NCBI GenBank assembly: GCA_039621445.1
Contig: CP154954.1
Span: 29,583,411-29,647,410, forward strand
Length of the DNA stretch: 64,000 nucleotides
From: Euglena gracilis
Lineage: Eukaryota
Reading direction: 5' to 3'
This document shows positions 790 through 59,423 of this stretch, in pieces (the first letter of the stretch is position 1; the number at the start of each line of letters is the position of its first letter). Position numbers and translations under genes: made by a program. The notes beneath the pieces were generated by a model. That model was given only the letters and a program-made list of their open reading frames with translations, made no database searches and was not told where the DNA came from.

Positions 790-922
790 GATAATGAGAA
801 ACCTTCTGTGACGAAAAAATTTTTCGGCCGGGGTCCCAAGACCCAAGAATCTTGTCATTCTTGGGTACCCCCCCAAGAAGCAAGATCTTGGGGGGGTAAC
901 CCAAGACCCAAGACTCATCCTT
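1..922 (-). mobile_element. hAT-superfamily DNA transposon, 5' part; inserted into the RT of element A and running off the window edge
   Basis: Element A RT ORF stops abruptly at ~920. Subterminal CCCAAGA/TCTTGGG repeats at 835-915 precede a transposase gene. Confidence 0.8.
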
Positions 923-2924
923 GGTCTGCGGTGAGTGCCTGCCCCAAAACGTCTTCGAAGGCCGCGAAGATGGTTTCCCCACATCGAGTGACCTCCGTTT
1001 GTGCCTGGTAGGAATCTGAAGCGCGCAAAAGGTGGTTAACGCGGCATCCGTCTAGGCAGGACCGTAGCAGGTGGTGGGCTAGTTGAGCATCGGCCACGGA
1101 GGTCACCAGGTCAGCTGCCTCTTCCAGTTTGGAGGTGGCGTCGGTCCAGGCTCGGATTGTCTGTTCAGCGGTTGTGGGGAAGTCCACCGGGCAGCCCAGG
1201 ATGGTGATCCCGGATCCAGGTTCCCAGGGGACAACTTGGATGTGCTCGCGGGACGGCAAGGATGAGGCGGCAGGGCCCCACGCCACACACTTGGCCAGAT
1301 TCAGCTGCACTCCTGTGCGTCCGGCTTCGTGCTGAAGGAAGTCCAGGCATTTCTGCAAGCCCTTCGGCTCCCCCACGAGTAGGCCGTCGTCCAGGTACCA
1401 GACAGACCATGACAGTTCGGCCTCTTTGCTGATGGTCTCCACGATAGGCTGCAGCCCAACGGCGAACCCGATTGGGCCCAGGGGGCAGCCTTGGTGTGTC
1501 CCCCGTGTAGAGGCGAGTGTGCGGCCTTCACTGAAGAGTGGTGCAGGCTGGCCATATGCGAACCGCATATAGTTGAAGAGGGCTGGTGTGCGCGTTTGGG
1601 CCTCTTGTAGGATGACGGTCCGGTCGAGGCAGTTGAACGCATTTTTCAGATCCACCTGTAGTACTGCCCAATTTCCGCCCACATATAGCCGCCTGATGAG
1701 GTTCTGCGCCCCCAACGCAATGGACTCGGCAGCGTTGGGTATGCCCACCCCTGCTTGCACAGGTGCCAAGCGGCCGACTTGATCCTTGGCAACCCCGGTA
1801 CGAAGGAGGGCCTTGCCCACCAATCTGCGCAATGTGTCCCCCACCGCGATGGGCCGCACACCATCGTCTTTTTTGCGCAATGGAGTCAGATTTGCTGCAC
1901 ACCACCAAGGTGCGTGGTCCGTGGGCAAGGCGCCATCCACCCACGCCGCAGTTAGCCCTGCAAGAGCCGTCAAGAGGCGAGCACCATGGCCAGGTCGCCG
2001 CACAGCATCCTGAAGATGGCAGGGTCGCAGACCGGAAGGTCCGGGGGCTGAGGTGCGTGGGAAGCGAAGGATGGTATCGCGTAACAGTTCCTCCCATCGG
2101 ATCTGTTGCCCGTCGGGAAAAGCCGGTATTCTTCTAGGTAGGGCATCCAACTGTACTGGGCGACCGGGTGGGTGTAGCTCTTGCAGTCGGGTCCACACCG
2201 CGGGGTCAGTGGATCGGTGGGTTCCGTCTGACAGGAGGAGTTGCAGAGCCTTCGCCGGCGCTCCCTCACCAACGAGGCTTCTGGCCTTGCGCAAGACAGC
2301 GTCCGGCAAAGTGGACGGTTCAGTGCGGGCTCGTTTGGCCGCTCTTGTTTCAATGGTGGGCCGCGGAAGCTTTGTGGCGCTGTTAAGCTCAGTCAGTAAA
2401 GTGGCGTAGTCACCTTGGCGGAACATCTTCACTCGACGCCGAATGGCGGAGGCCACGTCTTCGGCTGCCTCTCGTCCGCTCGTGGGGACAGTGCGTAACA
2501 CGAGTTTGGGGAACGCTAGCACGCCGTAGAGCGCATCCGAAGTTGGGCGGGCCACGTACTCTGTGAGGACGTCCGCCAGGGTTTCCGTGACATCGCGTTG
2601 CGTCGACGCAGGTACATGAAGAACTGTATGAGCTCGCGACAGCAGGATTTCTTGCGGGTTGCCACAGTTCGGTGGCACCCGGAGTCTGTTTGCGCCCGTG
2701 TGGCGGAGGTCGTTGTTGTTCCCCGTCTCATCGATCACCATTGATGCTGGGATGTCGTCAATTGGGTGCGCTAGGTCGCCGCACATCGGGGCGGCGTTGG
2801 GTTGGTTGACCGGGGCCGCCGTAGCGTTTGCCGCTTCTACGGGGCGTTTGCGGCCAGCTGGGGGGCCAGGGTTGCTTTCGACGTCTCCGCACGATAGAAG
2901 ACACCCTCGCCCGGTTTTGGACAT
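915..2924 (-). CDS. 2A peptide + CRE-clade reverse transcriptase (C-terminally truncated)
   Basis: Motifs SAPGPSG, RPIAVGDTLRRL, DLKNAFN, GTHQGCPLGP, WYLDDG. Begins with GRGCLLSCGDVESNPGP. Confidence 0.92.
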   Translation of the reverse strand: MSKTGRGCLLSCGDVESNPGPPAGRKRPVEAANATAAPVNQPNAAPMCGDLAHPIDDIPASMVIDETGNNNDLRHTGANRLRVPPNCGNPQEILLSRAHTVLHVPASTQRDVTETLADVLTEYVARPTSDALYGVLAFPKLVLRTVPTSGREAAEDVASAIRRRVKMFRQGDYATLLTELNSATKLPRPTIETRAAKRARTEPSTLPDAVLRKARSLVGEGAPAKALQLLLSDGTHRSTDPAVWTRLQELHPPGRPVQLDALPRRIPAFPDGQQIRWEELLRDTILRFPRTSAPGPSGLRPCHLQDAVRRPGHGARLLTALAGLTAAWVDGALPTDHAPWWCAANLTPLRKKDDGVRPIAVGDTLRRLVGKALLRTGVAKDQVGRLAPVQAGVGIPNAAESIALGAQNLIRRLYVGGNWAVLQVDLKNAFNCLDRTVILQEAQTRTPALFNYMRFAYGQPAPLFSEGRTLASTRGTHQGCPLGPIGFAVGLQPIVETISKEAELSWSVWYLDDGLLVGEPKGLQKCLDFLQHEAGRTGVQLNLAKCVAWGPAASSLPSREHIQVVPWEPGSGITILGCPVDFPTTAEQTIRAWTDATSKLEEAADLVTSVADAQLAHHLLRSCLDGCRVNHLLRASDSYQAQTEVTRCGETIFAAFEDVLGQALTADQG
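2862..2912 (-). other. 2A/StopGo peptide GRGCLLSCGDVESNPG-P
   Basis: Matches D(V/I)ExNPGP with a T2A-like upstream context. Confidence 0.9.
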
Positions 2925-4189
2925 GCTTTCGCGGACACAGGCAATGCCACCGTCCGGGGCGCCACGTAGTGGTTCCGCCTAGAATGTTTTGGATGTCTTG
3001 GATTCGGTGAGGATGCACTCGTGCCAGGGCGGTAGGTCCGGGGGGCGACGTAGTGGTCGCTGTCCGTCAGGTCCTTGCCCTTGGCTGAGGTAGGCACTGG
3101 CAGTTTGGCCGCTCCGAGATATGCAGACGTTCGGCCTGGATGGCCCTGGCCCGAGAATTGCGCCTCCCCCTGGTTTGCCGGCTCCACCACGTCCATCCGA
3201 GAAGATAATTGAAATCAGCGACCTCAAAAACCCCTTACTTGGCCGCTTTTGGTGGCTTGGAGAAAACACCAATGCCCGTATGTTGCAGTGAGCGAGGAGC
3301 TTGAGGCTCCGCTCTCCACCAGAACGGTCTAGACGAATGCCGGCTCTGGCGGCTCCACTGCGGCGATTTGAGTAGATATTCGGACTTGGCGACCTCAAAA
3401 ACCCCCCTGAGGGGCCTCTCAGTGGGCTCTGCCGGGTCATTGTCGCGGAGAAATGGTAATGGCCGCGACCAGGCGGCAGTGGTTCCCCTAGCCCAGGGGA
3501 AGGGAAAATTCGGCATGGCCGTTTCTGGCCCCCCGCCGTGTTTCGGCGGGATGACGGCCGCTTTTTCGGGTCCGCTGCCCTCGAAAAACCCCCTTGCGGG
3601 CATCTGAGCGGGCGTCGCTGGGTGGCCATCATGAAGGAACTGTGATGGACGCGGAAGGGAGGCAGTGGCTCCTGTGTGCCACGGGACCTGAAAACTCGGT
3701 CTGGCTGTTTCCGGCCTGCCGCCGCCTGTCGGCGGGCAGGGGGCCGTATTTTCGGTATCGCCGCCATCGGTAACCCCCATCTGGGGCACCTCAGTGGCCT
3801 GCGCCTGGGACCCAAGGGGAAGAGTTTGTTGCTACCGCCGTTAGCTTGGAGTCTTTGCCGTCCGCCATGGAACTGTGAAGTTCGGCCCCGCCGTTTCCGG
3901 CCCCCTTCCGCTACACTCCAAAGGGGCAAGCGTTTGTGGCAGGAGCGGGGGTGGCAGAACTGTGCAATCTGTGGGTAGCTGGGTCCACCACTGTTGCTCC
4001 CAATGACTTCGGTGCAATCTCCAGGGTCCTCTGTTTGGGGTATCCGCAGGAGTTTCATTGGAATTTTAGGGCAGAATATCTCACCAATCTTTTTAATGTT
4101 TTGGCTGGAATCTCTATGGTCCACTGCTGTGGTTTTCTCCTGGGGTTGAGCTGGTGGGAAAACCTTCTGCAGCAATTTTGGAAAGCACA

Positions 4190-4560
4190 AAGCCAAACCC
4201 AAGATTTGGGAGCAAAATGTCTGCAAATTGGGTCCACGAATCTGGATCGAGATGTCGATGTGCTGCTGGGGCTGGCTCTCCCAGGGCTTGGGTCCACCAA
4301 TCTTGACCGAGATGTCGATGTGCTTGTGGTGTGGCTTCTCCTTGGGCTTGCTCTCCCAGAGCTTGGGTCCACCAATCTTGTTCAAGATGTCGATGTGTTG
4401 CTGCTGCTGCTGCTTCTCCTGGGGCTGGCTCTCCCAGGGCTTGGGCCACCAATCTTGTTCAAGAAGTCGATGTGCTGCTGCTGTTGCTGCCTCTCCTGGG
4501 GCTGGGTCTCCCAGGGCTTGGGCCACCAATGTCGATGTAAATGTGCTGCTGCTGGGTGGC
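4190..4560 (-). repeat. ~60-bp imperfect tandem repeats in the 5' region of element A
   Basis: Recurring CCACCAATCTTG...GATGTCGATGTG...CTCCCAGGGCTTGGG; translates as repeated GGPKPWESQP...HIDI units. Confidence 0.8.
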
Positions 4561-4786
4561 TGAATCTCACCCTTCTTCTCCCGGGGCTGAATCTCCCAGG
4601 GCATTACAGATGTCGCTGTGGACTCCGGGGGTTGTGGGAATCCCCCGGGTCGGCGAGGCTGTCGTTGCAAATGAGCCAGTAGGGTGAACTCAGAGTAGAT
4701 TAACAATGAACTTCGAGAGGTCGAACGCCTGGAACTTCAAAATATACCCCACGTGGGGCTTTCACTTGTCCGACATTATATGCGAA

Positions 4787-4811
4787 CGAAAAAAAATAGA
4801 CACTCAGAAAG
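4787..4811 (-). other. Euglenid spliced-leader exon copy at the 5' end of element A
   Basis: CTTTCTGAGTGTCTATTTTTTTTCG, 25 of the 26 nt of the Euglena SL ACTTTCTGAGTGTCTATTTTTTTTCG. Not followed by GT. Confidence 0.9.
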
Positions 4812-5094
4812 GCTTCGCGAAATTAGGATTCTGTTTCGGACCAGGGCATGCGGGAGGGGGACCCAGCCCACACCATCCCAGGCAGGGATTCGGCCTTAGC
4901 CCCTCGGGGCCTCCTTCGCCTTCTGTCGGCGCTCCTTCCTTCTCCTTCCTCTTGACTTCTCTGGCGAGCCTCCGCACTCGCCATGCCCCATGCCCCACTG
5001 GGGCCCAATGCCAACTTCCGTCATCACCATCTCCCGAATGTCCATCTCGACCATCTCCATGTCTGGAATGTCCATCCAGCCCATCCACATGTCT

Positions 5095-5200
5095 GAAATG
5101 TCCATCTCTGGCATTTCCATCCTTGGCATTCCCGTCTCTGGCATTTCCGTCCTTGGCATTCACATCTCTGGCATTTTCATCCTTGGCATTCCCGTCTCTG
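5095..5200. repeat. 15-bp tandem repeats (DGNAR/DGNAK on the minus strand)
   Basis: Repeated TCTCTGGCATTTCCATCCTTGGCATT units. Confidence 0.7.
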
Positions 5201-5775
5201 ACACGTCCTTCCACAGCATCCACCAGCCTGGCATCAGAGGCCACCCTGCCATGGGCCCTGAGCCTGCCACTAGCAGCTGCTGCTGCACGACTGGCACACC
5301 ACGAACAGCCACAATCCATCAAAACTTGAATAATACTCCATCAGGTTGATGTTCACTCCTTCAGTCCACGCCTTCTTGATGATCTCCTGCATGCACATGC
5401 CATGCCTGATCCCGGCATGGCGGACAGCCGCCACGTGGCTGGTAGGCATGTTATTTAACTGGAGTGTTCAGTTTGTGTAGGGGGTGTGGGCCTCACCACT
5501 CCCACAACCCCATGGCGGCTGGCCCCTGGCGCCTGCAGGCCACTGGCTGGGATCCATCAATTCACCCAGGGGGCCTGGCACCCACCTGGGACTTTCCTTG
5601 TCACTTTTCATTGTAATCCCACTTCCCAATTCCCAGCGCTGGCACAAATCACAATACTTCCCAGAACTGAACAACCAAAGTCAAACTGAACATGCTGCTT
5701 GCCACTGTAAACACAAACACAGACAGAATTTTGTGTAATTCCTAATTCGTCTGCTGTAATCTTAATCTCTTTCCC

Positions 5776-5801
5776 ACTTTCTGAGTGTCAATTTTTTTTG
5801 G
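5776..5801 (+). other. Spliced-leader exon copy at the 5' end of element B
   Basis: ACTTTCTGAGTGTCAATTTTTTTTGG, 2 mismatches to the SL; ATG follows at 5820. Confidence 0.85.
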
Positions 5802-5819
5802 ATCTCCGCATAAACCGCC

Positions 5820-7159
5820 ATGTCGGGGGCCGCGGCCCCAGAAGACCCGCCAGCCGTGCTGGAAGTGCCGCTGGACAACGTCATCCTCAACAAAAAATTG
5901 ACTTCGGTGCTGGACCAAGTGGGCCTGGTGGCCCAGAATATGATGCTGTTGGCGAGCAAGGTGGAGGCCCTGGCCGACAAGGTGGAGGAAGGTCGACCAG
6001 GAAAAAGAAAAAGACAAGCTGAAGAAGATTATGAAGACTACCTCTGACAACAGCACCAGAACAAGTACATCCCCCGCCACCTCCGCCACCAGCAACAGCA
6101 GCAGCCTGAGCAGCCCTTACCTCTCCCCTGGCCCCCACACACACACCCACACCAACACTCACACATCACACATTTAAATCCCCAGGGGATGCCTGGAAGG
6201 ACTGCCCAGCACCAACAGCAGCAGCAACAGCTGCAGCCCCAAATGGGGCCACAAATGGGCAGCCAAATGGGGACCCAAATGGGCATGACCATCCCCACCA
6301 TGAGCGCCAGTGCCACAGCCAACAACCACCAAGGGCTGCAGCTCCCCATCGACCTGTTGCGACAGCTGCTGGTGCAAATCATGTTGCTGCTGTTTGGAAA
6401 TGTTACACAACAAAATGTCAGCAACATGGCCAATGCTGTCTCACAATTAATGGCCCCCCCATCTGGAACATTTGGACCCTGTCCTCCACATGTGCTCCCC
6501 CTTGTGCCCTGCCCTGTGCCCTGCCCAAGCCAAAGGGGGGAAGGGGGGGGACAGGAGGTCACAAAAAAGACAAGACCCCCCCCAAATGCAAATGCAAAAA
6601 AATGCACCACAACATTCTGGAAAAATTAAGGACCATGTCCACACTGGAAAAACAGCAAGTGGCACAGATTGTGGAGGAAAGAAAAACAGCACAGATGTCT
6701 GCACAGACCAGGGCTGGCAAAACCCAAACCACAGCAAAGCTGCCCACAAACTCGGTGACAGCCGCAGACGACTGGTCTGTGCTGTCCTCGACGGATGCCT
6801 CCATCTGGGGGGAGTGGACTGGCCAAAGAAAAAAATACAAAAAAGCCCTCGTGGACCAGTGGTTGGAAAACATCCATATCACTGTGGCCCCCGTTCCCCC
6901 TCACCCCCCCGGACGCACCTGGTCTGACCTGGCGGACGATGAGGTCCAGCTCCTCCTGTATGCACCTTGTGCTCCGCTCCAGGGCGGGGGGAAGTCCGGT
7001 GGCAGTTCCTCGCCAAATCATGGGGGACAGGACACACCCTGGGCACCCACAGGGCCGGCCCCCCCCCTCTGGCCGGCAGACCTGTGGCTCAATCACCACA
7101 CGAACAAAAGCCACAGGGACATTCTCTGCTGTGGGGATATCGAAGAAAACCCGGGCCCT
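5820..7159 (+). pseudogene. ORF1-like N-terminal segment of element B (coiled-coil-like and Q-rich), ending at the first 2A
   Basis: ORF pieces 5820-6047, 6189-6629 and 6602 onward, broken by stops/frameshifts; ends HRDILCCGDIEENPGP. Confidence 0.6.
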
Positions 7160-7789
7160 TGTTCCGGGGGGCCAGCCGGCCAAACAGCCCGTCTGACACC
7201 GGACGAGATATGGGACGAACTATACTGGAATGGCCAGCGCTGGAGGTGGCAACGTCTGCGCACCACGGCCACAGCGGGCCCATCCTCTGAGGCCCCGGCC
7301 CACGTCGGCCCAGGGACCGAATTTGCGAAATGCCGCCTGTGCTTTCAGCACATCAACCTGTCGTCTCTCTGGGACATGCAGTCTCATCACTGCCAGGCAG
7401 GTAGACCGTTCGGCAACATCTTTTCGCTCACCACAGTCCGGGAAGACAATTGGCGCTGGGACCTACACCACCTAGAATCCCTACCAAATGGCGAGTGGTG
7501 GCTGGTCCGCTGCAAGGTCTGTGGATGGTCGACAGAAACCCCTTACCCGGCACCCCTACTGAGCCACATGCAACTTTGTACACCACCGTCTCTCTCTGAC
7601 TTGGAAAGCGACTTGGAAGGGGACGATGAACACGACGAAGATGATAACAAGCATGCGGTCTACTCACGCGGCCACAGGAAGGTCAACGTCCCTGGATCCA
7701 ACAGCCCGCTACCTGGCTCGCCTCACTCATCCACCGGCAGGGGCGAGGACATCCTCACCGCTGGAGACGTCGAATGCAATCCGGGCCCC
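7160..7789 (+). CDS. 2A-flanked module with two Cys/His zinc-finger-like motifs and an acidic tract
   Basis: CRLC...HHC and CKVC...HMQLC, then DLESDLEGDDEHDEDD, then GRGEDILTAGDVECNPGP. Confidence 0.7.
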
Positions 7790-7834
7790 AGTAGTGCCAC
7801 ACGACCCCCTGAGGACCTCCCACGCCGAGTACCA

Positions 7835-9449
7835 CCGGGGGCCGACAATTACCGCGGGTGGGTAATTCCCGCTCGGGCTTAAACGCGGCCATTTTAGGCG
7901 CGCTGTATTACCGCGCGCTCCACGGCCGAAGCGCGCTAATAAACCCCGCGTTAATAAACCCCGCGCTATTACCCAAATCGCGGAACACTCACCATTCCTT
8001 ATTTTTTTTTATTCAGGACGTTTGCTCCCCAGCCCGCAGGCACGCAATGTGCCCTGGTAAAGAAGGGGTTTTTTTGGCACATCACATATCTGAAAAGTGA
8101 AACCTGGAGGTGTTCAAGTTTCAAGGACTGGTATCAAGTGTTTATCCAGTTTATGTATTCTTTCAACCTCAAGTAACAAGTCAGGACAAAGAACACACGC
8201 CAAGCGGAAGAAAAGACTTCAAGATTTACTGCTGCGCAGAACTTCAACGTGCTGACTTACATACTATACTTATTACTATACTTACTATACTTATTACGTG
8301 CTGACTTACATACTGACTTATTGGAACAATGATAATTGAGGACCTGAGCATGTCCCTGCTAAACTGCTCCATGTTGTTGGGAATCGCCGTTTTGTATGTT
8401 CTCTGATTCCTGTTGCTGTGCCTAGAAACTGGAAGGTTTTTTGTTTGTCTGTCCATTTTGTTGCACCGTAATGGTAATCTGGGCATCAGAATTTGCTTTA
8501 CAGTTTTTGATTCACATTCACATCTTGGGACCAGTTTTGGGGGTGACTTTGGGGTGACAGCATCATTTCATTTCTCTGTGGCATGTCTTCACAATGCTTT
8601 TTTCAAAATACTGTTCCAACAAATCCTTTCAACGTTTTCTTCTGGATATTTCTGTGACATCATTCAAGCAACATCTGACACATTTTGCACATCAGTTTTC
8701 ACTGAGGGTGCATGCATCTCTTTTCCCAAAATGAAACTTTTTCTGAAAACTTTTTCTGGGGAGATGACTCTTTCTTTCAAGAAAAGTTTGTAATTTTTGT
8801 CCTTTGAGCTCCCCCCGCATTGCAACTATTTTTTCTTGGAAGCGAATTGCACACCCCCCGTTTTTAAAAAAAGCACACTGCCAGAGGTTTCTTTCAATAT
8901 TCTAGTTGTGACGTTTCGTTTCAAACGTTTTTTTTTTGTTCCTCAGGCACTCCACAAAAACCAGTCAGTCACTTATTTTCGGAAAACCAGCCAGTCACCC
9001 CCCCGGGGGGGGGGAGTCGGCCACTCAAAAAAAAAGGCCACTCAAAAAAATAGGCCACTTTCCAGACATTCTCGGCCAAAAAACTTTTCCCTTTTACACC
9101 GCTGGCTAACCCCCCGAACAAAAACCAGTACGTAACTCTGAAACCACCGCCCCCCCAGGGGTTCAGCCAGTACTTAGGCAATCACTGTCGCCCAGGAGTT
9201 GAGCCACCGTCAACCTTTTTTTTGAGGTTTCTAAGTAAGCAATGCGCCGCGGGCAGGGTTTGCCGTTCCGAACACTAATCGGCGGTCACGCCCTGGGACT
9301 TCGGGCCTCACTAAACTCCTCTTTCCGTGCTTCCCAGAAGGCGAGGGGGGGTTGTTTGTCCCCGCGGGCCCCTGGGCCGGCGCGTTGTAAAACCCCGCGG
9401 TAATTGTCGTCGCGGCAATTACCCACCCGCGGTAATTGTCGGACCCCGG
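7835..9449. mobile_element. Non-autonomous TIR DNA transposon with a 2-bp CA target-site duplication (possibly CACTA/Mirage-like)
   Basis: TIR CCGGGG(G/T)CCGACAATTACCGCGGGTGGGTAATT at both ends. Removing it restores EDLPRRVPREDFM in frame, matching the empty site in paralog D (~26180). Confidence 0.9.
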
Positions 9450-9451
9450 CA

Positions 9452-10396
9452 CGCGAGGATTTTATGCTGGACCCCCCGTGGTTCCAGGTCGTAGTCCGGG
9501 CCCTTTCGCCGGACAACTCGCCCACCATCGACGCCTTCGCCGACCAGAACAACACACAGCTAGCCCACTTCTGGTCACAAAGGGAGGACGCCTTCCTCCA
9601 TAACTGGTTCCTGCCGAATCCAATATGGTGCAACCCGCCTTTTTCCTTGCTCCCTCGTGTTCTTCAGCACGTCCTCCGCCATGGGGGCAACATCATCCTC
9701 CTCGCACCGGACTGGTCCAATGTGCTGGCCGGCCTTCGGAGCATCTCCTCGGGCAGCTTGACCCTGCCACGGTGCCCTATCTATCGGGCCAGGGGGACGG
9801 CACTGCTCCCGACCCCAGGCTGGGCAACTGTGGCCCTGTGGATACACCACCCATGCCACCCTCCACTGAGCAGTGCCCCGGGGCCAGTGAGGCCCGTCTC
9901 CCGCGCAAGCTACTCGGAACGTCCGCCTCGTGCCTCTCACACACCGTATCCGCTCGTGCCCCTCCTCTCCCTGGGACAGCACCGCCTCATCAGAAAGCGA
10001 ACCGCCTGTCACGGCGGGGAAACATTCCACCTGCGGGACTACGCGGGCCGGACTTTCCTGATCTACCACGACGCCCTCTGGGACATCCGGGGCACCTCAC
10101 CCCACTGGTGCCAACGCTGTGGACTGTGGCAATGGCCATGGGACTGTCCCACGCTACTTCCCCAACACTTCGCCGCACCCAAAACACCACTTCTCCGGCC
10201 GGCCTTCCGGCTGAACCCCACCCCACGCTCCCTCCTTGGCGCTGTACAAGCACCACCGGCTGAGACAGCGCCGGTCCACCCGGCACCAAAAAACGACCGG
10301 CGTAGTCCGTCACTGGGCGGTCCCTCCACCTTGGGGACCAACCGTGGACGGGGTAGCCTCCTCACCTGTGGGGATGTGGAGGAGAACCCTGGGCCG
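9452..10396 (+). CDS. Dam-like (phage/DIRS-type) DNA N6-adenine methyltransferase module of element B, ending in a T2A-like peptide
   Basis: EDFML...TIDAFADQNN...DAFLHNW...WCNPPFSLLPRVL...ILLAPDW, with the NPPF catalytic motif. Confidence 0.85.
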
Positions 10397-11478
10397 GCCA
10401 AGCGCCCAGCACCGCCATCCCCCCGCGGCGCGCCAACCGCAACTGAGGCCAGGGAACATGACAACCTTTTCCTGGACCTCGCTCACCCGGAACGTGACGC
10501 GGCGATGGTCATCGACAGTGCCGGCCAGGAGTCCAATCTCCGAGGACAGCCTGCGCACAGTCTGGTGGTTGGCGCTCCCCCCTGCGACATAACCCACCTT
10601 CTCCAACAGAGAATTCCGACCCTCCTCCACCTGCCCTCGGCCTGCCAACAACCTGTCTTTGACACCATGGCAGACGCCATCACGGCATACGTATGAGCAC
10701 CCACGGACGCGGCATTGCATTGCCGTGCTCTCCTTCCCAAGCTTGTCCTCCGCCCGGCATCAACAACCAAACCACCGCCACCAGCAGAACTGGAGTCCAT
10801 CCTACTGCGACGCGCCAGACTATTCCGCGAAGGGGATTACGCTACCCTGCTGACAGAAGCCCAAAAGGACACCCAGTCACGACACTCCATTGTGGAGACC
10901 AGGGCAGAAAAACGTTCCAGGACACAGCCCACCGCCCTCAGTGAAGCAATGACGAGACGCGTACGCACCCTCACCGCAGAGGGGGCTTCTGCAAAGGCTG
11001 TTCAGATTCTGCTGTCCGAGGGTGCGCACCAACCGGACGACCCAGAGGTCTGGGGCGCCCTGGAAAAGCTACACCCCGCCGGCAGGAATGTTGACACCAA
11101 CCGCCTGCCGCGTCACGTCCGCCCTTTCCCCGAGAACCACACCCCTGAGTGGGAGGACCGAGTGAAGGAAGCCATCCGTCGCTTCCCACGGGGATCGGCG
11201 CCGGGGCCATCTGGGTTGCGACCAAGCCACCTCCAAGACTGCCTGCGGAGACCAGGTCGAGGAGCAAGGCTGATCACTGCCCTCGCACTCCTGACCCAAG
11301 TCTGGGTGGACGGCCAGCTACCGCCCCACCACGCCGCGGCCTGGTGCTGTGCGAACCTAACGCCGCTCCGCAAAAAGGATAACGGGATACGCCCGGTGGC
11401 GGTTGGGGAAACTATACGTCGCTTGGTGGGGAAAGCCCTGCTCCAGACACCAAACGCCAGATCCGAGGTCGCAACCCT
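10397..11478 (+). pseudogene. N-terminal part of the element B RT protein
   Basis: SAPGPSGLRPSHL and RPVAVGETIRRLVGK. Stop at 10694 (CGA in paralog D), frameshift near 10725, similarity to D ends at 11478. Confidence 0.85.
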
Positions 11479-11900
11479 AAGGAGGCTAGGCTCAGCGGGG
11501 GGGGGGGGGGCTGGGGGGGGGCGAGCGGCCGCGCGGGCGGCCGCGCGGGGGGGAGGGGGGGGAGGGGGGTCCGAGGGCGGCCGCGCGGGCGGAACGCATC
11601 CTAAAATCGGTGATTTTTGGGTACAAAAAGTGGTCATTTTTTGCCATTTTTGGGCCATTTTTGACCAAAAAAGTGCAATTTTGGCAGCGCCGAGCGCGCG
11701 GCCCCCAAATTTGCCATTTTGTGTCCGAAAAGGGTCATTTTTGGTCATTTTTGGGCCTCAAAAAATCGCGATTTTTTCTCCAAAATTTTTTTTCTTGGCT
11801 ATGCTTGGCACAGGGGGGGAGGGGGGGTCCAGGGGGGGGGCGAGCGGCCGCGCGGGCGGCCGCGCAGGGGCCGCGCGGGGGGGGGGGGGGGGGGGTGAAA
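11479..11900. repeat. GC-rich duplicated block at the start of the insertion that truncates element B
   Basis: GCGAGCGGCCGCGCGGGCGGCCGCGC flanked by G-runs occurs near 11520 and 11840. Confidence 0.55.
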
Positions 11901-13959
11901 TTTCTCCCGGTGGGGCGGATTTCCCGCCGAAAACCCGATGGGTTATCTGGGATTCCACAACCCGATGGTGGTTGGTAGAATCGTGAATGCGACACATGAC
12001 CAATACCAGGTGTAGGGTGTTGGCTCATTCCTCACACAAGGTTAAATTTCTTGGGGGAGACTCGAATTTTCGAGCAGGGTACCAAATTCCGCATTGGAAA
12101 TGTCCTCCGAAAAGTGGGTTGCTGGTGTGGGCAAAAGCAAAGGTGGTCCAATTCGCGTTTTCGCGGGTGGTTGTACCAAGTTTGCGGTGGATGTAGGGAT
12201 TCCTACTCCAGAAACGGTAAATTGAGAACGCGATTCCGGGACATTTGGAACACCAACCGCATATATATACATACATACATACATACATACATACATACAT
12301 ACCACCACGGGATCCAAGACGCGGAATCAGCGTTCTTCGGACCAAGGCACGGATAAACTGTGCTTTTTGTGCAACAAATCCTGTCACATGTCTCGGGAAT
12401 GCCCGAATCCCGATGCACAAAAGTGTGTTCAAAGTCCTAGGGGGCCCGATCTCCTCACGAGAATCAAATTCCTCGGGTTTTTTGCGTCAATCGGGCGCTT
12501 CACGGTCTTCGGAGAACCGTTTTAGCGGTAGTTGGCCCAAGTCACCGTCGCGTTATGGACGGGAAACCTGTACCTCTCGTGGTCGGTGACCTGGTACCCC
12601 GACCCGGAAACGGGATTTCAATCACGATACTTCACGATCTCGTCAGTGAAGTTGATTATCCTCTTCGCGCGATTCACAAAGAAAGCACCGGCACACCAGT
12701 CATGGTCGACGGGAAACCCGTTCACCACGACATTATGACGGTGGAGCGGAATACCGTTCTCCCCGTCACACTGAATCCCACCACAAATAACGTTGTTCAC
12801 TGTGCGGTTCAAAGGACCACCACTCATCCATGTGGCCCAGAACTGGTTCCCTCCGGCCCGGCACGGAAATCGCGGATCAGAACCGGCCGCATAGCCGGTA
12901 CATCGCTTGGTGGAATATATGGAATTCAGTTTGCGGACCGTCATACGGGCCTCGTTTAATTCCTTGTCCGAGGTCTCATCCCCCTCCCTGCCCGAAGCTG
13001 GGGTGTCCTCCTCCAAACAAGATACCTTGAAGCCGACTGCTTGCTGGTTGGAGGAGTAACCATGGTCCTCGCGGCGCTTAGTTATTTCAAGAACAAACCC
13101 TGGGCAGGTGAACAGCTGGAGGTGGGACTTGATCACTCCCGCACCACCTGCCCATCCGCCCGTGGTATGTACCCAGAGATTGCCTCCCCCCCACCACTGC
13201 CTTGAAAATTCACATATAGTAACCACAAACTGTGTGGTGACTGGGGATGTGTGCTGGGGAAACCCCTGCCCATCAGCCCCAACAATCACTCCCCCCAAAA
13301 TTCCCACATTTCAATGGTCAACAATCAAATTCTGACGTAACTTGGGGATACCCCATTTTACGGCTTTACCGTCTGGTAGTGGAAAGCCACTCAAATGGTT
13401 TGCACACACCACTCCACTGTTCACCGCCTCCAAAACCACCTCACCGCTGGTGTCCACCAGGACGGCCACCACTTTTCCAACACCGTTACCCACCACGGCA
13501 ACAACCGTTTTCCGCACCGGGTATACCGAGAAAGTCGGACCCCCTGCCCAACACACACCAACATGCGTTCCACACGAGGCAGGGCACGCGAGTAGCGGTA
13601 CCCCTCTCGTTCCACTGGGTTACAAGACGAAAGCCCAAGTATCCGCAGTTATAACGGTGTCGAGTAGTCGCCCAGCCACACAACGCCTCCGTTACTCACC
13701 AGTTGTGTCGAATCAGACACACCTGTACACGACTCCACGGCTAATGCCTCTCACACCCACAATCACACACGCCTGCAACACCACACCACTTCCCTCCAAT
13801 GTGTGTCCCGTGGGAGACGCACCACACAACCAGACCAAGATTCTGCAAGTTAATAAAAAACAGCCAACGCTATGCACACAACCCGAAACGTACATCCAAG
13901 CCTCAAGCCCGCAAAACGCGGTGGTGGGTCACAAATGTCAACGTCACGAAAAAATTTCA

Positions 13960-14235
13960 GATTCGCGAAAATCGTGATCTGAATTGCGGAAATCGTGGAT
14001 GGCATCGTGAAAAGCACGATTTCCGTCGCATTTCCCGCGAAAATTTTTTCGCTTTCGCGATAAATTTTTAAATTTTTTTCATATTAGTGGAAATCGCGAT
14101 CTGAATCGCATAAAATCGCGAGCGGAATCGTGAAAAGCACGATTTCCGTCGCGTTTCACGTGAATTTTTTTCACTTTCATGAAAAAATTTTCATCTTCGC
14201 GAAAATCGCGATCTGAATAGTGTAAATCGCGGGCC
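13960..14235. repeat. ~120-bp imperfect tandem repeats
   Basis: Recurring AAATCGCGATCTGAAT and CGTGAAAAGCACGATTTCCGTCGC. Confidence 0.65.
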
Positions 14236-15024
14236 AAAATCCTCCAACAAAGGATGAGTCTGTTTCTGAGCTCTTTCACAGATAGTTCCGAGAGGGGTGT
14301 TGAATTTCTGATGACATTCTCCAGGAGATCAGTGGGGTCCCAAAAATGGTCATACTTGAAACCGTGTATTGGGGCTCTGGCTTCACGCCCGAACCGGCGT
14401 TCCAGAACGCCGGTTCGGCGCAGAAATTTTTGCGCCGAACTGGCGTTCTGGAACGCCGGTTCGGGCGGGAAGATGGCGTCCAGGGGACCGAAAATAAAAA
14501 GTGCCAAAAAGTGTTCAAAATGCTTAGTGGACATGTGGCAATCACAATCACATCTGAGCAGTTTTTGGGGAGTAATTGGCCATATATTGGGGTATTTTGT
14601 GCAACATGAGACACCAGGCCCTCGCCACAAGGAGAAACTCCTCATGACTCCCTGTGCGGCCACAGGTCGCCGGTAGATACTATGGGTGTAAAGTACATAA
14701 AGGTTGTACGGAGTGCCGTGCCCGTCCTGAGGTCAATGGTTAGAGGAAAATGGGAAAGTCCCATCTTCAATATATACGGCGGCGGGGGGGGGGGTGGGGG
14801 GGAGTGTGTGCTTTGTCTGCCACTGTTGGCGTGTTTGTGTCATTGGCTGGTTGGCTGATTTGTGCCAGGGGTGGTTTCAGAGCCGTCCGAGAGTGGCTGA
14901 TTTGTGCCTGGGGTTGTTTCAGAGCCGTCCGAGAGTGGAGGTGAGAAAGCTGGCCTCATGGCCATTGCTCTGTGTGGGCCACCGAAGGTGGTAGAGGTGG
15001 TCGGTGCACTGGATGAAGTCACAC

Positions 15025-18000
15025 TCAAAAGTATGGGGAATGCGTACCACCGCTATTGCAATCAAGTAGTTGCTCAGGGCACTGTCCCCATGCCAGTTGT
15101 CTTGCCAACTCGCGCATCAAAGCCATTCCAAGTCCCTGCCATGCACTGGCCTCCACACCCCGCCTCTCCCAGCCGTTATGTTGGCTTGTTTGGAGGCGGA
15201 TGCATGTGGAGACGAATCCTTGGCCTGCTTCACTCATGCCACCGTAGCAGTCCATCACCAGTGGGATAAATGTCCAGCCTCGTCGCTTGCAAGGGTCCCC
15301 ATACTTGGCAATTTTGTCTTCTTCCTGTCGAGTGTGCCAATTGTCCACCTGAGCTGGAGGTGACCTGGAGGGTGCTAGTGGGTGTCTGACTGTGACATCA
15401 ATGGCTGCGGGTCCATTTGCGTCAAATCGAGTGATGAAAACATCGCCCGGTCGAGTTCCGTCCTCAGCTTTTTCTTCTCGACGTGCAGGGAAGCCAGCTC
15501 GCTGTGCCAGGTTCAGGACAAAGCTTTGCACTGCCCCGTGCCGCCGAACGAGGTTGTTACGGTGGCAGCAGACGAGGTGGTGGCCGGCTGTGTCAAGTGG
15601 GCTCATGCATCGTGGACATGCGGGAGAGTGGCTCTCTTCTGTTTTTACCACAGGAGCGCCAAGCGTCCATTGGAGGAGGGCAACAAATTCTTTCGTGGGA
15701 ACAAGGGTTTTTGTGCCAGCAGAGGGGACTGCACACGTCCAGGCCATGGCATGAGGCCTTGTTTGGCAGGAAAATCGGATGGCATCGGATCCGGACAGGG
15801 AGTTTTGCAGTTTCTTTTGGCGCAGCATTGAGCAGACGTTCCCCCAGTGTTTCTGTGACACCATTTCTCGTGGTAGTTGGGTGGCACGGGTGGAGTCATC
15901 TGTTAAGGCCTGCAGGGGTTGACCTTCAACACCAACGATCTTCAGCAATGTCAGTGCGGAGTCAAAATCTGGTGGTTTCATATTGCGGATTACGAAGTCC
16001 GGAAGTCCCAACAACGTTTCAGCCCTTTGGAGGAAGTCCAGTTGGGCTGACCACCGTGCAGCGAGTCGGCATTCCTGCGGATCCTTAATTCCTAGTCCCC
16101 CCAAACGGGGTGGCAAGGTGGCGTGACCACTGGTTGTCATCAACTGGTCCTGTCATGATGCAACTCAGCGTGTTTCGTAAACAGTGGCTCAGCAATAAGC
16201 ATTGGTCCCCAGCAAGCGGCAGTGGTGTTCCCCTCAGTAGGTCATTGACGCGACATGCATCCAAACATTGACGCAGAAGGGTGTACTGGACATGGGCACT
16301 TGGCACAAGCTGTAGGAGATTGCATGCCTTCAGAACCATTTCGACTCGTGGAGCCCAAACAGTGGAGGCGAACGCCCCCCCTGCTGGGTGGCAGACTGGT
16401 AGTCCAAGGACCTTGAGGCCACTTGCTTCAGAATATTCCTGCACCGGAATTTGTTGGAGCGGGGTTGTGTTGGTTGGGAGGCTGGACCATTCCATTCCAA
16501 AGGCAGGTCCCCACAATCGACACTTGGATATATTCAGGGAAACCCCAATGAGGGGTCCTTCTCGCAGAATGTATCGGACTGCTGTTTCCAGTTGTGCTGG
16601 GGTACCCACGAGATGGGCATCATCCAAGTACCATGCTTGCCATCCGACCAGCTCACCCACTTTTTCAACAAGATTTTGAACTGCAATTGCGAACGCCGCA
16701 GGACCACATGGGTCACCTTGTTGCACACCACTTTTGCTGCGAAAGGAGGTTGACCCACAGTACAAAGTGGAATGCTCACTGTAGCAGCTCTCCATCCATG
16801 CTGTCATCTCAGGGCAACGTTCTCGAACAGCGTCCAGCATACCCTCACGGCGCAGGCAGTTGAAGGCATTTGCAAAGTCCAATTGCAACACACCCCAATC
16901 CTGAGCACCTGTGTGATGGAGACAGCCGACAAGCTGCTGAAGTCCGATGGCAACAATGGAACAGGGATCAGAATGGCCAACACCAAATTGTCCAGGCAGA
17001 CTGTTGCGAACTGCTGTTCTCACCACTTCCTGTCTCATGATCACTTTTCCTACCAGCCGACGTAGGCATTCGCCCGCTGCTATGGGCCTGGTTCCCTCTT
17101 CTTCTGGAGCAGGTGGGCATTGGTTGCCGAAATCATCGGTGTTTTTGGCTGCTTTCACTTTTCGCAAAGCTGTCAGTCTGGCTGCTGCCATGATTGCCGC
17201 AGGTCCTTTTGGCAAACCCTTGTCAATGGTGCGATAACAGAAGGTCGTGAGTTCGTCCAAAAGGTCATCTGCGTGGCAACCTGCATCATGCCCCATCAAA
17301 CACCGAAGGTGGTCGGGCCTCAAGCCAGAGGGGCCTGGGGAAGATTCTGGGCCAAAGCTGAAGACTGCCTTTCGCACTATTGTCCGGCGTTGTTGCATGT
17401 CTTCCTCAGAAGTGGCAGCTGGTAGCGAACGTCTCAAGGTCGTTGGGCCAAGTCCAGGAGGCGGTTCATGTGGATGCAATTGCCGGAGGCGTTCACGTAC
17501 CAAGGGGTTGTCGGGATCTTGAACACCATCGGAAGTCAACAGGTTGCACGCTTTGGATACAGCACCCCTGCCGACCAGTCGTTCTAGTCTGGAGACAAAA
17601 TCTCTTTTGTTACTTCTTCCTCTTTCGAGGCAGCCAGTCTAGTACGTGGTCTCTTTCGTGCGTTAGTTGCTTCCACTGGAGGAGAAGTGTCCTTCCAACT
17701 CTCAAGCGTCGGGCGGTTTAGGTATTGTCGTGAACGAGCCTGCAGGATGCGGCCAAGCCGTGCCCAGTGACCGCGCCCACCACGGCCAAAGGGTGCCAGC
17801 ACTGCCTTTGGGAAGCACCAAAGGGCGTGCATGGCTTCCCAGGTGCTTTGTTCGTTCAGGCGGCGCAAGAGTGTGCAATAGACCTCGGCCACTGCTTGGA
17901 TGGCCCCGCGAGGGATAAGGCTGATTGACCCACGGCGATCGTGGGCAATTTCTTCCCAAGTTGGATGAAGGTCAGGGCATGGTCCTGAGAGGGGGTGGGA

Positions 18001-19590
18001 TGCGGCATCAATGTTCATTGCGACGCTGTGTGGCAATGGGGCCGAGGCAGAGTTCAAAGGTTGTTCGCTCTGAGCTGGGTCACCCCCAATGAGGTCCAGA
18101 AGGAGCTGTTGTAGATTCCGGCCATCTTGCGAAGAGGTTTCCAAGAGTGGGGCAAGGGTGGGTGGGACCGAGGCAGTTGCCAACAAGAAGCCGACAGCCC
18201 TTGCCGGGTCCTCGCTGAAGTCAATTTCAGTCTGTGGGGGTACTGCGGGGCCTGGGTTTGGCTGAATGTCACCACAGGACAAAATTCCTTCCCCGCGCCC
18301 CAAGCGACGGTGGTGACCGGTGCAAGTACTGGGGTTTTGGCGCTTCTTGGTGGGCATGCGTTTGGGCGAGCTATCCCTTTCCCTTTGAAACTCCAGTTCT
18401 GGGGGTCTGCAGGAAATGGGGGGTTGGGGTTCTGGGGTTATTTCGTTTGCGTGGAGGAAAGTGTGCCTGGCAGCTTTTGGTGTAACAGAGGCTTTGACTT
18501 TCTGTGTCGCTTTGGCGGCTTTCAGCAAATTGGGCCTGGCCGTTTTGAGCAAAATGGAACCACGGGTTTGCAGGGCACTTTTTGGTTCCGAAAACTGCAG
18601 AGTGGGTTTTGGGGAAACAGGGGAACAGTATCTGACACTTTTGGGGCTCCATGTCAGCAGAACCAGCTTGGGACCATGGGGGTTTTGGGTGCCTGGTGGG
18701 TTGGTGGGTGGGGGTGTGGATGCTGCAACTTGAAATGAGTGCAGAAGTTTTTCCATTGTCAGGTGAGCAAGTGCACACAAAAGGAAGAAGGACAAAAAGG
18801 TGTCACAGGGGGGCCTTTGCAGGCCCAGGGCCTTTACAGGCCACTGGAGCAAAATGGTGTTGGAGGGGGGCCTTTGCAGGCCCAGGGCCTTTGCAGGCCA
18901 CTGGGGCAAAATGGTGCAACAGACCAAAATGGTGTCACAGGGGGGCCTTTGCAGGCCCAGTGACTTTGCAGGATGGGGTAAAACGGTGTCAATGAGGGGT
19001 TGGGGTGGCACAATGTTTTTCACTGTCAAGTCAAAACTGCTGCAAAATGTGTCACTGAGGGGTTGGGGTGGCACAATGTTTTTCACTGTCAAGTCAAAAC
19101 TGCTGCAAAATGTGTCACTGAGGGGTTGGGGTGGGAGAATGTTTTTCAATGTCAAGTCAAAACTGCTGCAAAATGAAGTTTGGGATGCAATGCATAACAC
19201 AGAAAGGAAGATACTGGAGCTGAAAGTGGCACTTAATGGTTGGCAGATGGGGGGCCTTTGCAGGCCCATGATGAGGGGCCTTTGCAGGCCCAGATGGGGG
19301 GGCCTTTGCAGGCCCAGATGAGGGGGCCTTTGTAGGCCCAGATGGGGGGGCCTTTGCAGGCCCAGATGAGGGGGCCTTTGCAGGCCCATAAGTTGCCACC
19401 AGGGCTGAGCAGCCCAGTACGCCACTGACGACAGCATGTCCAGCTGCAGCAGTACACCAGTACCAGCTTCTGCCTGCACCAGCAGGACTTCTTGTGTTGC
19501 ACCACCAGGAGTTCCTCTGCCTGCACCACCAGGACTGCAAGGCTGCTTCTGCCTGCACCAGCAGGACTTCAGGACTGCTTCTGCCTGCAC
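15025..19590 (-). pseudogene. Element C polyprotein: repetitive N-terminus, 2A-like motif, RT, CCHC finger, RLE
   Basis: GDIQPNPGP; DFANAFN, GVQQGDPCGP, WYLDD; CPRC...HHLVCC, RHGAV, RPGDV, IDVTV, KIAKY. One stop at 17584 and a frameshift near 16130. Confidence 0.9.
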
Positions 19591-19600
19591 CAGCAGGACT
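18800..19600 (-). repeat. Tandem repeats in the element C 5' region
   Basis: GGGGGCCTTTGCAGGCCCA units (LGLQRPP), 63-bp units at 18985-19170 and CTGCCTGCACCAGCAGGACT units. Confidence 0.85.
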
Positions 19601-19685
19601 TGTGGGTGACTCTAAATGGCAATTGAACTCTTGACTTGGATACTTGACCCCACCAGGGGCTTTCAATTGTCCGCCATGTATTGTG

Positions 19686-19711
19686 CGAAAAAAAATAGAC
19701 ACTCAGAAAGT
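19686..19711 (-). other. Perfect euglenid spliced-leader exon copy at the 5' end of element C
   Basis: ACTTTCTGAGTGTCTATTTTTTTTCG, 26/26. Confidence 0.95.
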
Positions 19712-19888
19712 GCAACAATTGCAACAATTTCCATTTGGCCAAATTTAGGGAATTTTTGAAATAGAATACCATGCAGCACGGCTGAAATCCAAGGCCATCT
19801 GCTGAAAGCCCTTGAGAAGAGCTTTCCATCGATGGGCAACATGCCTGGTGAAACATAGGAATTTCGACTTTGCAAACAGGGTCGGAAA

Positions 19889-57504: not shown

Positions 57505-57754
57505 GAACAGAGTTTTGTATTTAATTGGAGGAGATGCTTATCTTTCTTTGAAGCGTACAAAGAGATTGGCAAAAAAGGTTTCAGATGCCTATCTTTTTAA
57601 AATGTTGTTTTATATTTTTGTAGGATTTCAAGACTTTTGTGGTTGGCTTATTTGGATTGGTATATGTAGTCTGCAATATCAAATTTCCAGACCAGCATCG
57701 AAAGTCGTGCTATGTACGCATCCATGTGTGTACGAATGGGTGCATGCGTGTGCA

Positions 57755-59420: not shown

Positions 59421-59423
59421 CCC

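Follow-up and report, generated by a model that had tools for sequence, protein, structure and literature searches.

The window analyzed here is a stretch of 64,000 nucleotides from Euglena gracilis (contig CP154954.1), in which five retrotransposon copies, A, B1, B2, C, and D, were located (Table 1). A, B1, and C each begin with a DNA-encoded copy of the 26-nt spliced leader (SL), and the host is a euglenid with the SL of E. gracilis. Searching the window with a 24-nt SL core, allowing three or fewer mismatches and using 100 shuffles as background, returned matches at 4787-4810 (-, 0 mismatches), 5778-5801 (+, 2 mismatches), and 19686-19709 (-, 0 mismatches), and none in any of the 100 shuffled windows. 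Searches with each half of the SL led to the same three sites, with no partial or relic copy elsewhere in the window. The reference for these comparisons is the printed E. gracilis SL (PMC6242988), from which the copy in A departs by a change of the first A to C. Each copy is in sense orientation to its downstream reading frame, with a gap to the ATG of 10 nt in A (ATG 4776), 18 nt in B1, and 8 nt in C (ATG 19677), and the dinucleotides directly 3′ of the SL are TT, AT, and CA, respectively, with GT in none. The original prediction, that three SL copies head three elements on the sense strand 8-18 nt before an ATG, that no GT donor follows, that the sequence is the host SL, and that tandem relic SLs are absent, agrees with these results throughout. 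Rfam returned no matches in the window, i.e., no SL-RNA, 5S, or ribozyme family.

Table 1. Coordinates of the retrotransposon copies, their spliced leaders, and associated features within the window
Feature	Position	Strand	Remarks
Element A	915..4811	-	SL-headed, 3′ side cut
Leader of A	4746-4786	-	4-codon uORF at 4762-4776
DNA-encoded SL of A	4787..4811	-	25/26 nt; first base, 4812, differs
Element B1	5776..11478	+	ATG 5820; old copy, frameshifted
DNA-encoded SL of B1	5776..5801	+	24/26 nt
Insertion inside B1	7833..9449	.	1617 bp, 38-nt inverted ends; foreign to element
Element C	14607..19711	-	Complete at both ends
3′ TSD copy of C	14599..14606	-	8 bp, TGTTGCAC on element strand
3′ UTR hairpin of C	14745..14770	-	10-bp stem, 3-nt loop, z -3.5
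Leader uORF of C	19663-19677	-	
DNA-encoded SL of C	19686..19711	-	26/26 nt
5′ TSD copy of C	19710..19717	-	TGTTGCAC on element strand
B2	25228..30250	+	5′-truncated B-family copy without SL
Same hairpin motif in B2	30220-30245	+	Compensatory pair change; z -2.3
D	33513..35806	+	Second 5′-truncated copy without SL
SL, spliced leader; TSD, target-site duplication; uORF, upstream open reading frame; UTR, untranslated region.

The frame of A comprises 1272 codons interrupted by one TAG (2979-2981), which reads TGG in one contig of X1, a public DNA run. It contains a 2A motif (DVESNPGP, 2862-2885) and a reverse transcriptase (RT) with YLDD at 1386-1397 (Pfam RVT_1, E 1.8e-12), and stops at approximately 915 with the endonuclease domain absent within the window; A is therefore a copy cut at its 3′ side. 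Three 2A motifs (7136-7159, 7766-7789, and 10373-10396) are found in B1 together with a Dam-like methyltransferase (NPPF at 9632-9643; PF05869, E 2.6e-7) and the N-terminal part of an RT, which is 50% identical to that of A over 391 aa. Homology between B1 and B2 ends at 11478, and B1 is cut before the endonuclease domain. The inverted ends of the insertion inside B1 (7835-7872 vs. 9449-9412) agree at 95%, and the uninterrupted form, with 7832 joined to 9450, occurs in two contigs of the DNA run and in one contig each of X16, which is recorded as RNA-Seq, and X15, which like X18 is an RNA run by our guess. Run X16 carries a leaf-litter label, and no habitat claim rests on this label. In C we find a variant 2A-like motif (DIQPNPGP, 18247-18270), so that the counts in frame are one in A, three in B1, and one variant in C, followed by an RT (YLDD 16619-16630; RVT_1, E 1.1e-10) and an endonuclease region with a CCHC knuckle (15565-15618), RH (15529-15543), and RPGD (15439-15453). 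An NPPF match in C (18414-18425) was rejected as a Dam motif, as it falls in proline-rich low-complexity sequence. At least one 2A motif is present in 21 of 94 fetched relatives.

The truncated copies extend this picture. B2 retains the Dam-like domain, a 2A motif, an RT (YLDD 28516-28527; RVT_1, E 5.1e-12), the CCHC knuckle (29486-29542), and RPADL (29655-29669), as well as the 3′ hairpin. On the 5′ side, B2 joins the host DNA inside the zinc domain of a Ty3-like integrase, and its 3′ end lies somewhere beyond 30245, the exact base not being fixed. A 10-bp candidate for its target-site duplication, CAAAACAAAA, was discarded: it falls ahead of the real junction, approximately 25-30 nt into the integrase frame of the host sequence. 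D combines a B-like N-terminal part with an RT nearest to that of C and adjoins an integrase core fragment, in Ty3-like sequence as for B2, lying on the opposite strand. CAC is the last trinucleotide of the 5′ flank in C, B2, and D alike.

Three divergent retrotransposons had been predicted, and this holds, with RVT_1 in A and C, an RT part in B1, and RT identities of 36-56% among the three (36-37% for A vs. C). Terminal direct repeats (LTRs) were not found in a self-comparison of the window. The domain order in C and B2 is RT, then CCHC knuckle, then restriction-like endonuclease. Among solved RTs, those matched by sequence are LINE-type only, weakly (E 0.016-0.09), and a PDB sequence search with the C-terminal domain of C gave no matches. 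A structure model of the linker/CCHC/endonuclease region (pLDDT 84.6) returned exclusively R2 proteins at Foldseek ranks 1-7, all at E ≤ 0.001 (5e-6 to 3e-4) and at a sequence identity of 13-15%, followed after rank 7 by other PD-(D/E)XK nucleases at E > 0.07. Residues C179, C182, H192, C196, H205, E226, R234, P235, D237, D252, and K280 are invariant in 22 sequences. A profile protein search, with search words drawn from the unconserved first 500 residues, gave two matches, the Protein Atlas gave generic RVT_1 clusters only, and the names CRE, SLACS, CZAR, R2, or NeSL do not occur among 26 + 78 relatives. Taken together, A, B1, and C are probably full-length copies of three diverged families of R2-type non-LTR elements (RT/CCHC/restriction-like endonuclease).

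The 3′ end of C, ...GGTGTCTCA, stands directly before the target-site duplication (TSD) with no poly(A) tail. The duplication had been predicted as GCAACA and is both real and longer, at 8 bp (TGTTGCAC). The 5′ copy ends in AC, two bases that also count as the start of the SL and may be target-derived; an extra 9-bp tandem copy lies beyond it (19720-19728). In one contig of run X1, 14604 is joined to 19757 without C and without the SL, and the 33 letters between these points resemble 19726-19756. This empty site, known from that one contig, is a paralogous repeat rather than an allele, and the target of C is an ordinary repeat. Marks of target-primed reverse transcription are thus seen in the TSD and empty site of C and in the 5′ truncation of B2 and D. 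When the 100-nt flanks preceding the SLs of A, B1, and C were aligned locally, the scores were 8, 8, and 9, with shuffle means of 7.2-8.5; a 12-nt upstream likeness between A and B1 did not extend, and its score was at shuffle level. Because the upstream flanks are unrelated, B2 and D carry no SL, the TSD brackets C together with its SL, and the empty-site contig is SL-less, the SL is cargo. That it entered as part of the element and not as target, as originally proposed, is supported by these observations and by its identity with the host SL.

The SL 3′ end adjoins the element leader directly in four of four junctions (A, B1, C, and the protein P0002), and A and C have the same junction. In P0002, K stands before the translated SL (FLSVYFFS), from which it follows that AC is missing there, and in this family the ATG comes directly after the SL, so the leader is not universal. 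The 5′ ends are ragged by 1-2 nt, A being without its first A and P0002 without AC, which is as expected if copying ran up to a capped RNA end. Behind the SL, A and C keep 33 of 42 leader columns (58 of 67 aligned columns minus 25 SL columns), with no alignment over the remainder of the 5′ kilobase, and a CGCATA...ATGTCGG core is common to B1. Such conservation between elements whose RTs are 36% identical would be more in keeping with a functional module at the 5′ end than with a tag carried passively.

Beyond the window, an exact SL scan gave no matches in viral contigs and one in prokaryote genome contigs, namely a 988-nt contig in a bacterial MAG (L081), which has the SL alone in common with the window and gave no Rfam matches. 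Metagenome relatives found with the family profile (80 of 126 confirmed loci kept; 22-43% identity) include none with the exact SL, nor any with an SL at four or fewer substitutions. These loci are other organisms' relatives and are uninformative on the SL.

Mature euglenozoan mRNAs bear an invariant SL (PMC6242988), and the SL-headed copies are, in our estimation, likely to be reverse transcripts of SL trans-spliced element mRNA. The element would be transcribed within a longer precursor, and host trans-splicing would place the capped 26-nt SL on an acceptor just 5′ of the first ATG. One long frame would then be translated and divided into several proteins at the 2A sites. The endonuclease would nick a target of low sequence requirement, and the RT would bind the 3′ UTR, perhaps at the conserved hairpin and with no poly(A) tail copied, and copy the mRNA to its extreme 5′ end. 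Copying to that point would put an SL on every complete cDNA, and incomplete copying would leave 5′-truncated copies without SL. Two routes had been left open by the original prediction, copying of trans-spliced mRNA and masters at the SL exon/intron junction. The former is favored by contigs in which the 26-nt SL is joined to internal position 4573 of A, one each in the probable RNA runs X15 (depth 158) and X18 (depth 90), with no such joint in the DNA run; the short side of this joint is only 26 letters, placed at 88% likeness, and no pyrimidine tract precedes 4573 in A. Some stretches of C and B also have counterparts, differing at few positions, in contigs of X16 and X15, and element stretches without cover by RNA contigs were not taken as silence. 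On this reading, the SL would have reached the RNA by trans-splicing and not through an SL gene as template. Since the DNA copy of the SL closes with CG where an acceptor would have AG, splicing cannot be repeated at that junction in an SL-headed daughter; nevertheless, the exact SL/leader junction is kept in three families. As every jump costs a trans-spliced element its acceptor, the family can propagate only with masters, by regaining the acceptor, or from an internal promoter. We infer that propagation runs only through copies that keep or regain the AG acceptor at the junction (“masters”), SL-headed daughters probably being mostly dead ends unless the acceptor is regained. No copy of the precursor form, with an outron and AG at the junction, is present in the window.

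The second route, with masters sitting at the exon/intron junction of SL-RNA genes, using the SL promoter without trans-splicing and shedding the dispersed copies as off-target daughters, strikes us as unlikely. It would explain the exact and stable SL/element junction of each family without an acceptor, it accords with the lack of outron-bearing copies in the window, and the enzyme type, with its restriction-like endonuclease fold, is that of the trypanosomatid elements described as inserting into SL-RNA genes (PMC12278014). However, none of the five window copies (A, B1, C, B2, and D) lies in an SL or 5S context, C landed in an ordinary repeat and has no poly(A) tail, the names CRE, SLACS, or CZAR occur in 0 of 78 relatives, and SL-to-internal-site joints appear in probable RNA runs only. 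Masters of the A, B, C, and P0002 families, with their different leaders, would moreover be needed at the same base. Far less credible still is the reverse arrangement, in which the SL is the target and an endonuclease seeks genomic SLs so that the element lands just behind. NeSL elements are SL-gene-specific, and the CRE elements specific to SL genes provide a further precedent (PMC12278014), but the SL lies inside the target duplication of C and is missing from the empty-site contig, B2 and D were inserted at SL-free sites, and neither an SL intron nor the remaining half of a host leader is found 3′ of any element. Template jumping is a known property of the R2 RT, and the SL could in principle have been added during reverse transcription by a jump from uncapped element RNA to a free SL exon or SL-capped RNA. 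Small irregularities at 5′ junctions, of which the additional 9-bp tandem copy beside C is one, would suit such a jump, but it would bring intron or foreign mRNA between SL and element, whereas all four junctions abut directly and that of A and C is constant; we regard it as very improbable.

A different kind of alternative holds that the SL and the approximately 40-nt leader would act as internal promoter or initiator and draw in the transcription machinery of SL-RNA genes, each full-length copy making SL-headed RNA. The leader conservation between A and C, set against an unalignable remainder of the 5′ kilobase and RTs at 36% identity, and the core common to B1 speak for it, as would, by analogy, Pr77 of L1Tc/ingi elements (PMC1874656; PMC8190864), and it would solve the re-expression problem. 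Set against this, the leaders do not fold beyond shuffles (z -1.2, -0.3, and +0.8) and the P0002 family, with its ATG directly after the SL, has no leader at all, and we consider the idea quite doubtful. A broader version, in which the DNA-encoded SL is the element's own expression device by internal promoter or by acceptor regain, is likewise a speculative and rather unlikely option. In one form, the SL and conserved leader would borrow the SL-RNA gene machinery and yield capped SL-headed RNA without trans-splicing. In the other, the CTAT, T8, and CG tail of the SL would act as a ready-made branch and pyrimidine tract, and one C-to-A change would recreate an AG acceptor at the old junction (TTTTTTTTAG replacing TTTTTTTTCG), turning a daughter into a new master. 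If true, this retrotransposon strategy would draw on the host trans-splicing system and could be an evolutionary step toward the SL-gene-homing CRE elements.

The reading as copies of trans-spliced mRNA can be placed beside several known systems, and the SL-headed elements are a variation on two known kinds, the SL-tagged retrogenes of dinoflagellates and the SL-targeting CRE elements of trypanosomatids. The CRE clade (SLACS, CZAR, CRE1, and CRE2), as described in PMC12278014, shares with them a non-LTR organization in Euglenozoa with RT then restriction-like endonuclease, internal repeat regions, variable TSDs, and a physical link with the SL. Trypanosomatid CRE elements have a constant insertion point in SL-RNA genes (PMC12278014) and a poly(A) 3′ end, whereas here the SL is the 5′ end of copies dispersed in other repeats, C has no poly(A) tail, and 2A sites, plus a Dam domain in the B family, are present. 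CRE-like insertion into SL genes was seen in 0 of 5 window copies, and the empty site of C has no SL. The original comparison with CRE1/SLACS/CZAR consequently stands for the type of enzyme (RT with restriction-like endonuclease) but not for behavior, the copies not lying in SL genes. R2 elements are 28S rDNA-specific, co-transcribed with rRNA, and equipped with N-terminal zinc-finger/Myb DNA-binding domains. With those of Bombyx, zebra finch, and turtle, our elements share the modeled fold of the C-terminal linker/CCHC/endonuclease region, a structured 3′ UTR element, and the lack of a poly(A) tail, but 28S rDNA specificity, rRNA co-transcription, and zinc-finger/Myb domains were not seen here.

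In dinoflagellates, a relic DinoSL is reported to mark copies of trans-spliced mRNA (PMC12014239; PMC5585692; PMC3942190). Both cases have RNA-derived copies headed by a DNA-encoded SL; however, host genes are copied in trans there, often with stacked and truncated relic SLs left by successive cycles, whereas here autonomous retrotransposons are tagged and no relic stack occurs in the window. Pr77 is described as a common 5′ signature that has promoter activity and is bound by TBP and SNAP50 (PMC1874656; PMC8190864), and as in L1Tc/ingi a short 5′-terminal sequence recurs across diverged retrotransposons of one host lineage. There it is element-specific and the transcripts are unspliced, whereas the shared head in E. 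gracilis, known from sequence alone, is the host SL. 2A (StopGo) sites are on record for Ingi, L1Tc, and APE-type elements (PMC3708506). Similar D(V/I)ExNPGP motifs would divide a single frame in our elements, in which they are predicted to separate an N-terminal protein, the Dam-like enzyme, and the RT-endonuclease, but with at most three or four sites per polyprotein and in elements of the restriction-like endonuclease type. Our literature searches, which did not cover the supplements of preprint 10.64898/2026.05.21.726589, returned no paper on SL-headed R2-like euglenid elements.

In a genome very rich in repeats, with poor transposon annotation, the SL serves as an inherent label of full-length copies derived from RNA. 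Dam-like methyltransferases in Euglena retroelements have been reported (preprint 10.64898/2026.05.21.726589), and here they also occur between 2A sites within genuine LINE polyproteins. Within Euglenozoa, these elements offer a point of reference when asking how SL-gene-specific CRE/SLACS/CZAR elements arose. On the best reading, autonomous R2-type elements would obtain a cap and a defined 5′ end through host trans-splicing.

Three retrotransposons of the window (A, B1, and C) are headed by a DNA copy of the host spliced leader (SL), as the original prediction had it. The 24-nt SL core was found in these three places only, with no match in 100 shuffles of the window, and no partial or relic SL was seen elsewhere in the window when each SL half was searched. 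Compared with the printed 26-nt E. gracilis SL (PMC6242988, in part), the copy heading C is identical (26/26), that of A differs at its first base, at 4812 (25/26), and that of B1 matches at 24/26 positions. The SL lies 10 nt (A), 18 nt (B1), and 8 nt (C) before an ATG and is directly followed by TT, AT, and CA, respectively, with GT in none. In A and C this leader region holds a four-codon upstream frame whose ATG and TGA are at matching positions in the two elements, and a small GC hairpin (CCCCACGTGGGG / CCCCTGGTGGGG) comes next. The homologous ATG of B1 opens the long frame.

Features of the window and their coordinates
Feature	Position	Strand	Description
SL core heading A	4787-4810	-	24 nt, 0 mismatches
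SL core heading B1	5778-5801	+	24 nt, 2 mismatches
SL core heading C	19686-19709	-	24 nt, 0 mismatches
Upstream frame of A	4762-4776	-	MSDK*
Upstream frame of C	19663-19677	-	MADN*
Element A	4811 down to ~915	-	1272-codon frame
Element B1	5776-11478	+	three 2A motifs, Dam-like methyltransferase, N-terminal part of RT
Insertion in B1	7833-9449		1617 bp, 38-nt inverted ends
Dam region of B1	9404-10696		
Element C	19711 down to 14607	-	2A-like motif, RVT_1, C-terminal domain, 3' UTR hairpin
B2	about 25228 to beyond 30245		Dam, RT, endonuclease
Dam region of B2	26136-27041		
D	33513-35806		tblastn match
Ty3-like LTR retrotransposon	20867-25228	+	weak protease, RNase H, integrase H2C2 matches
Integrase core fragment	33222-33512	-	adjoins D
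Frame after A	217-1035	-	no Pfam match
Inverted repeats	14356-14405, 20670-20720		51 nt, 94% identity
D-like fragment	19904-20187		resembles D's interior
Tandem-repeat arrays	54076-55497, 57700-58600, 59400-60830		self-comparison
Microsatellite	12263-12302		4-nt phase, also among the arrays

These elements, together with the 5'-truncated copies B2 (B family) and D, both found by tblastn, show the features of the broad group of R2-type LINEs. The frame of A, which holds a ribosome-skipping 2A motif and a reverse transcriptase (RT; Pfam RVT_1, E 1.8e-12), is interrupted by a single TAG (2979-2981). One contig of the public DNA run X1 has TGG in its place, and open copies of A therefore exist. 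In C (RVT_1, E 1.1e-10), the CCHC, RH, RPGD, D, and K residues of the C-terminal domain are unchanged in 22 aligned relatives, and an AlphaFold model of this domain (pLDDT 84.6) matched seven PDB chains at E <= 0.001, 7/7 being R2 retrotransposon proteins, with other PD-(D/E)XK nucleases ranked below at E > 0.07. The 3' hairpin of C folds better than shuffled sequence (z -3.5; 0/200 shuffles fold as well), that of B2 is less clear (z -2.3; 6/200), and its 10-bp stem is kept between the two via compensatory change. The RTs of A and B are 50-56% identical and those of A and C 36-37%, making these diverged families within one group. Database relatives have the same layout, with multiple 2A sites, Dam in many cases, and RT plus endonuclease behind them, and their frames reach 2226 aa; those with a name belong to a sponge, dinoflagellates, and a fungus and are uncharacterised, and CRE, SLACS, CZAR, or R2 is the name of none of those found. 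Two features that define the CRE clade of trypanosomatids, SL-gene insertion and a poly(A) tail (PMC12278014, in part), are absent from the elements here.

The Dam-like adenine methyltransferase (PF05869, NPPF; E 2.6e-7 in B1) lies between 2A sites and in frame with the R2-type RT-endonuclease in B1 and B2, likewise in the relatives P0001, P0003-P0008, P0013, and P0028, and NPP[FY] occurs in 8/13 of the closest database relatives. It looks like a genuine module of the LINE polyprotein; the accessible part of a 2026 preprint (10.64898/2026.05.21.726589) considers that Euglena Dam elements whose RTs are LINE-like could be chimeras or the result of nested insertion, and 'spliced leader' does not occur in that part. 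The insertion that splits B1 is probably a non-autonomous DNA transposon, and the form without it occurs in both DNA and RNA-library contigs.

It had also been proposed that the SL entered as part of the element, and this is now supported. The likeness of A and C begins exactly at the SL and extends 41 nt beyond it into the element (58/67 columns identical; 33/42 outside the SL), and the three 100-nt flanks upstream of the SLs resemble one another no better than shuffled sequence does. C, with its SL, is enclosed by a target-site duplication (TGTTGCAC, 19710-19717 and 14599-14606, element strand), the chance of a given 8-mer in the 300-nt search space being ~0.5% by our arithmetic. One X1 contig, joining 14604 to 19757 through 33 letters that resemble 19726-19756, is a paralogous copy of C's host repeat without element or SL. 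B2 and D, which start within the element at residues 213 and 47 of the B1 N-terminal frame, have no SL and both adjoin Ty3-like integrase sequence (Pfam matches to the integrase pieces fall under Pfam's own cut-offs, yet are mutually coherent). Taken together, the unrelated flanks, the duplication, the empty paralogue, and the SL-less truncated copies indicate that the SL was inserted as the cDNA 5' end. The SL as insertion target is contradicted by the last three of these.

B2 cuts the Ty3-like element just past the integrase zinc domain, and the insertion points of B2 and D correspond to one region of an integrase gene, only a few tens of bases apart, the fragment beside D being on the opposite strand. 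CAC ends the 5' flank in each of C, B2, and D, possibly the trace of a short sequence preferred for cleavage. Inverted repeats flank the region holding C, the D-like fragment is just upstream, and C is located in a nest of older repeats. The frame directly after A's truncated end resembles a BED-finger/hAT N-terminus by eye; in run X15, a contig of 2644 nt at depth 20 aligns from position 923 towards lower coordinates, its first 30 letters being left unaligned, which is consistent with expression of a gene that has its trans-splice acceptor near 924-927.

Host trans-splicing puts this SL on mature mRNAs (PMC6242988, in part) and is the simplest route of the SL onto element RNA; copying of trans-spliced mRNA is the likeliest mechanism, and a reasonably probable one. 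In support of this route, in X15 (depth 158) and X18 (depth 90), runs guessed to be RNA, one contig each joins 26 letters of the SL region, a short side at a likeness threshold of 88%, to 4573 inside A, leaving out 212 nt. The joint was not seen in X1; contigs in general reveal presence rather than absence. A pyrimidine tract is absent at the 4573 site. X16 alone is recorded as RNA-Seq; its contigs and those of X15 match parts of B and C with few differences and span the B-family form without the insertion, with DNA carry-over in the libraries being possible. The first SL bases are ragged: A is without the first A, the AC of C can derive from the target, and in P0002, a relative with a translated SL, the preceding K means that AC is missing. 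This is consistent with copying to the capped end.

A trans-spliced element loses its acceptor on copying. Since the DNA-encoded SL ends in CG, a daughter copy is not re-spliceable at the same junction, and the first AG downstream (22 nt in A, 26 nt in C, and 47 nt in B1) is past the ATG in all three. Splicing at the AG within the SL would produce relic stacks, and these were not seen in the window with either SL half. The exact SL/leader junction common to A and C despite the lost acceptor favours a master-copy model, with propagation restricted to copies that have AG at the junction; the SL tail (CTAT, T8, CG) is one base change short of an ideal acceptor there. A location of the masters inside SL genes, with transcription driven by the SL promoter, seems unlikely. 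More doubtful still is an internal promoter formed by the SL and the conserved leader, for which Pr77, as described in abstracts, would be the analogue; the A, B1, and C leaders fold no better than shuffles.

The nearest analogue of the SL tag is found in dinoflagellate retrogenes with relic DinoSL (PMC12014239, PMC5585692, PMC3942190, each in part), however, the tagged copies there are host genes and here they are the retrotransposons themselves. An exact 26-nt Euglena SL also occurs in DNA at 791-816 of a 988-nt contig of a bacterial MAG (L081), with AG and short repeats of GGGGTA before it and, after it, a 5' UTR and an ATG frame that show no relation to the window. It probably represents a further SL-tagged retrocopy, present there as contamination from a euglenid. 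Among the matches listed by full-text search, no paper on SL-headed retrotransposons in euglenids was found. The main interest of these elements lies in the puzzle of their re-expression and in the link to the SL-homing elements of kinetoplastids.
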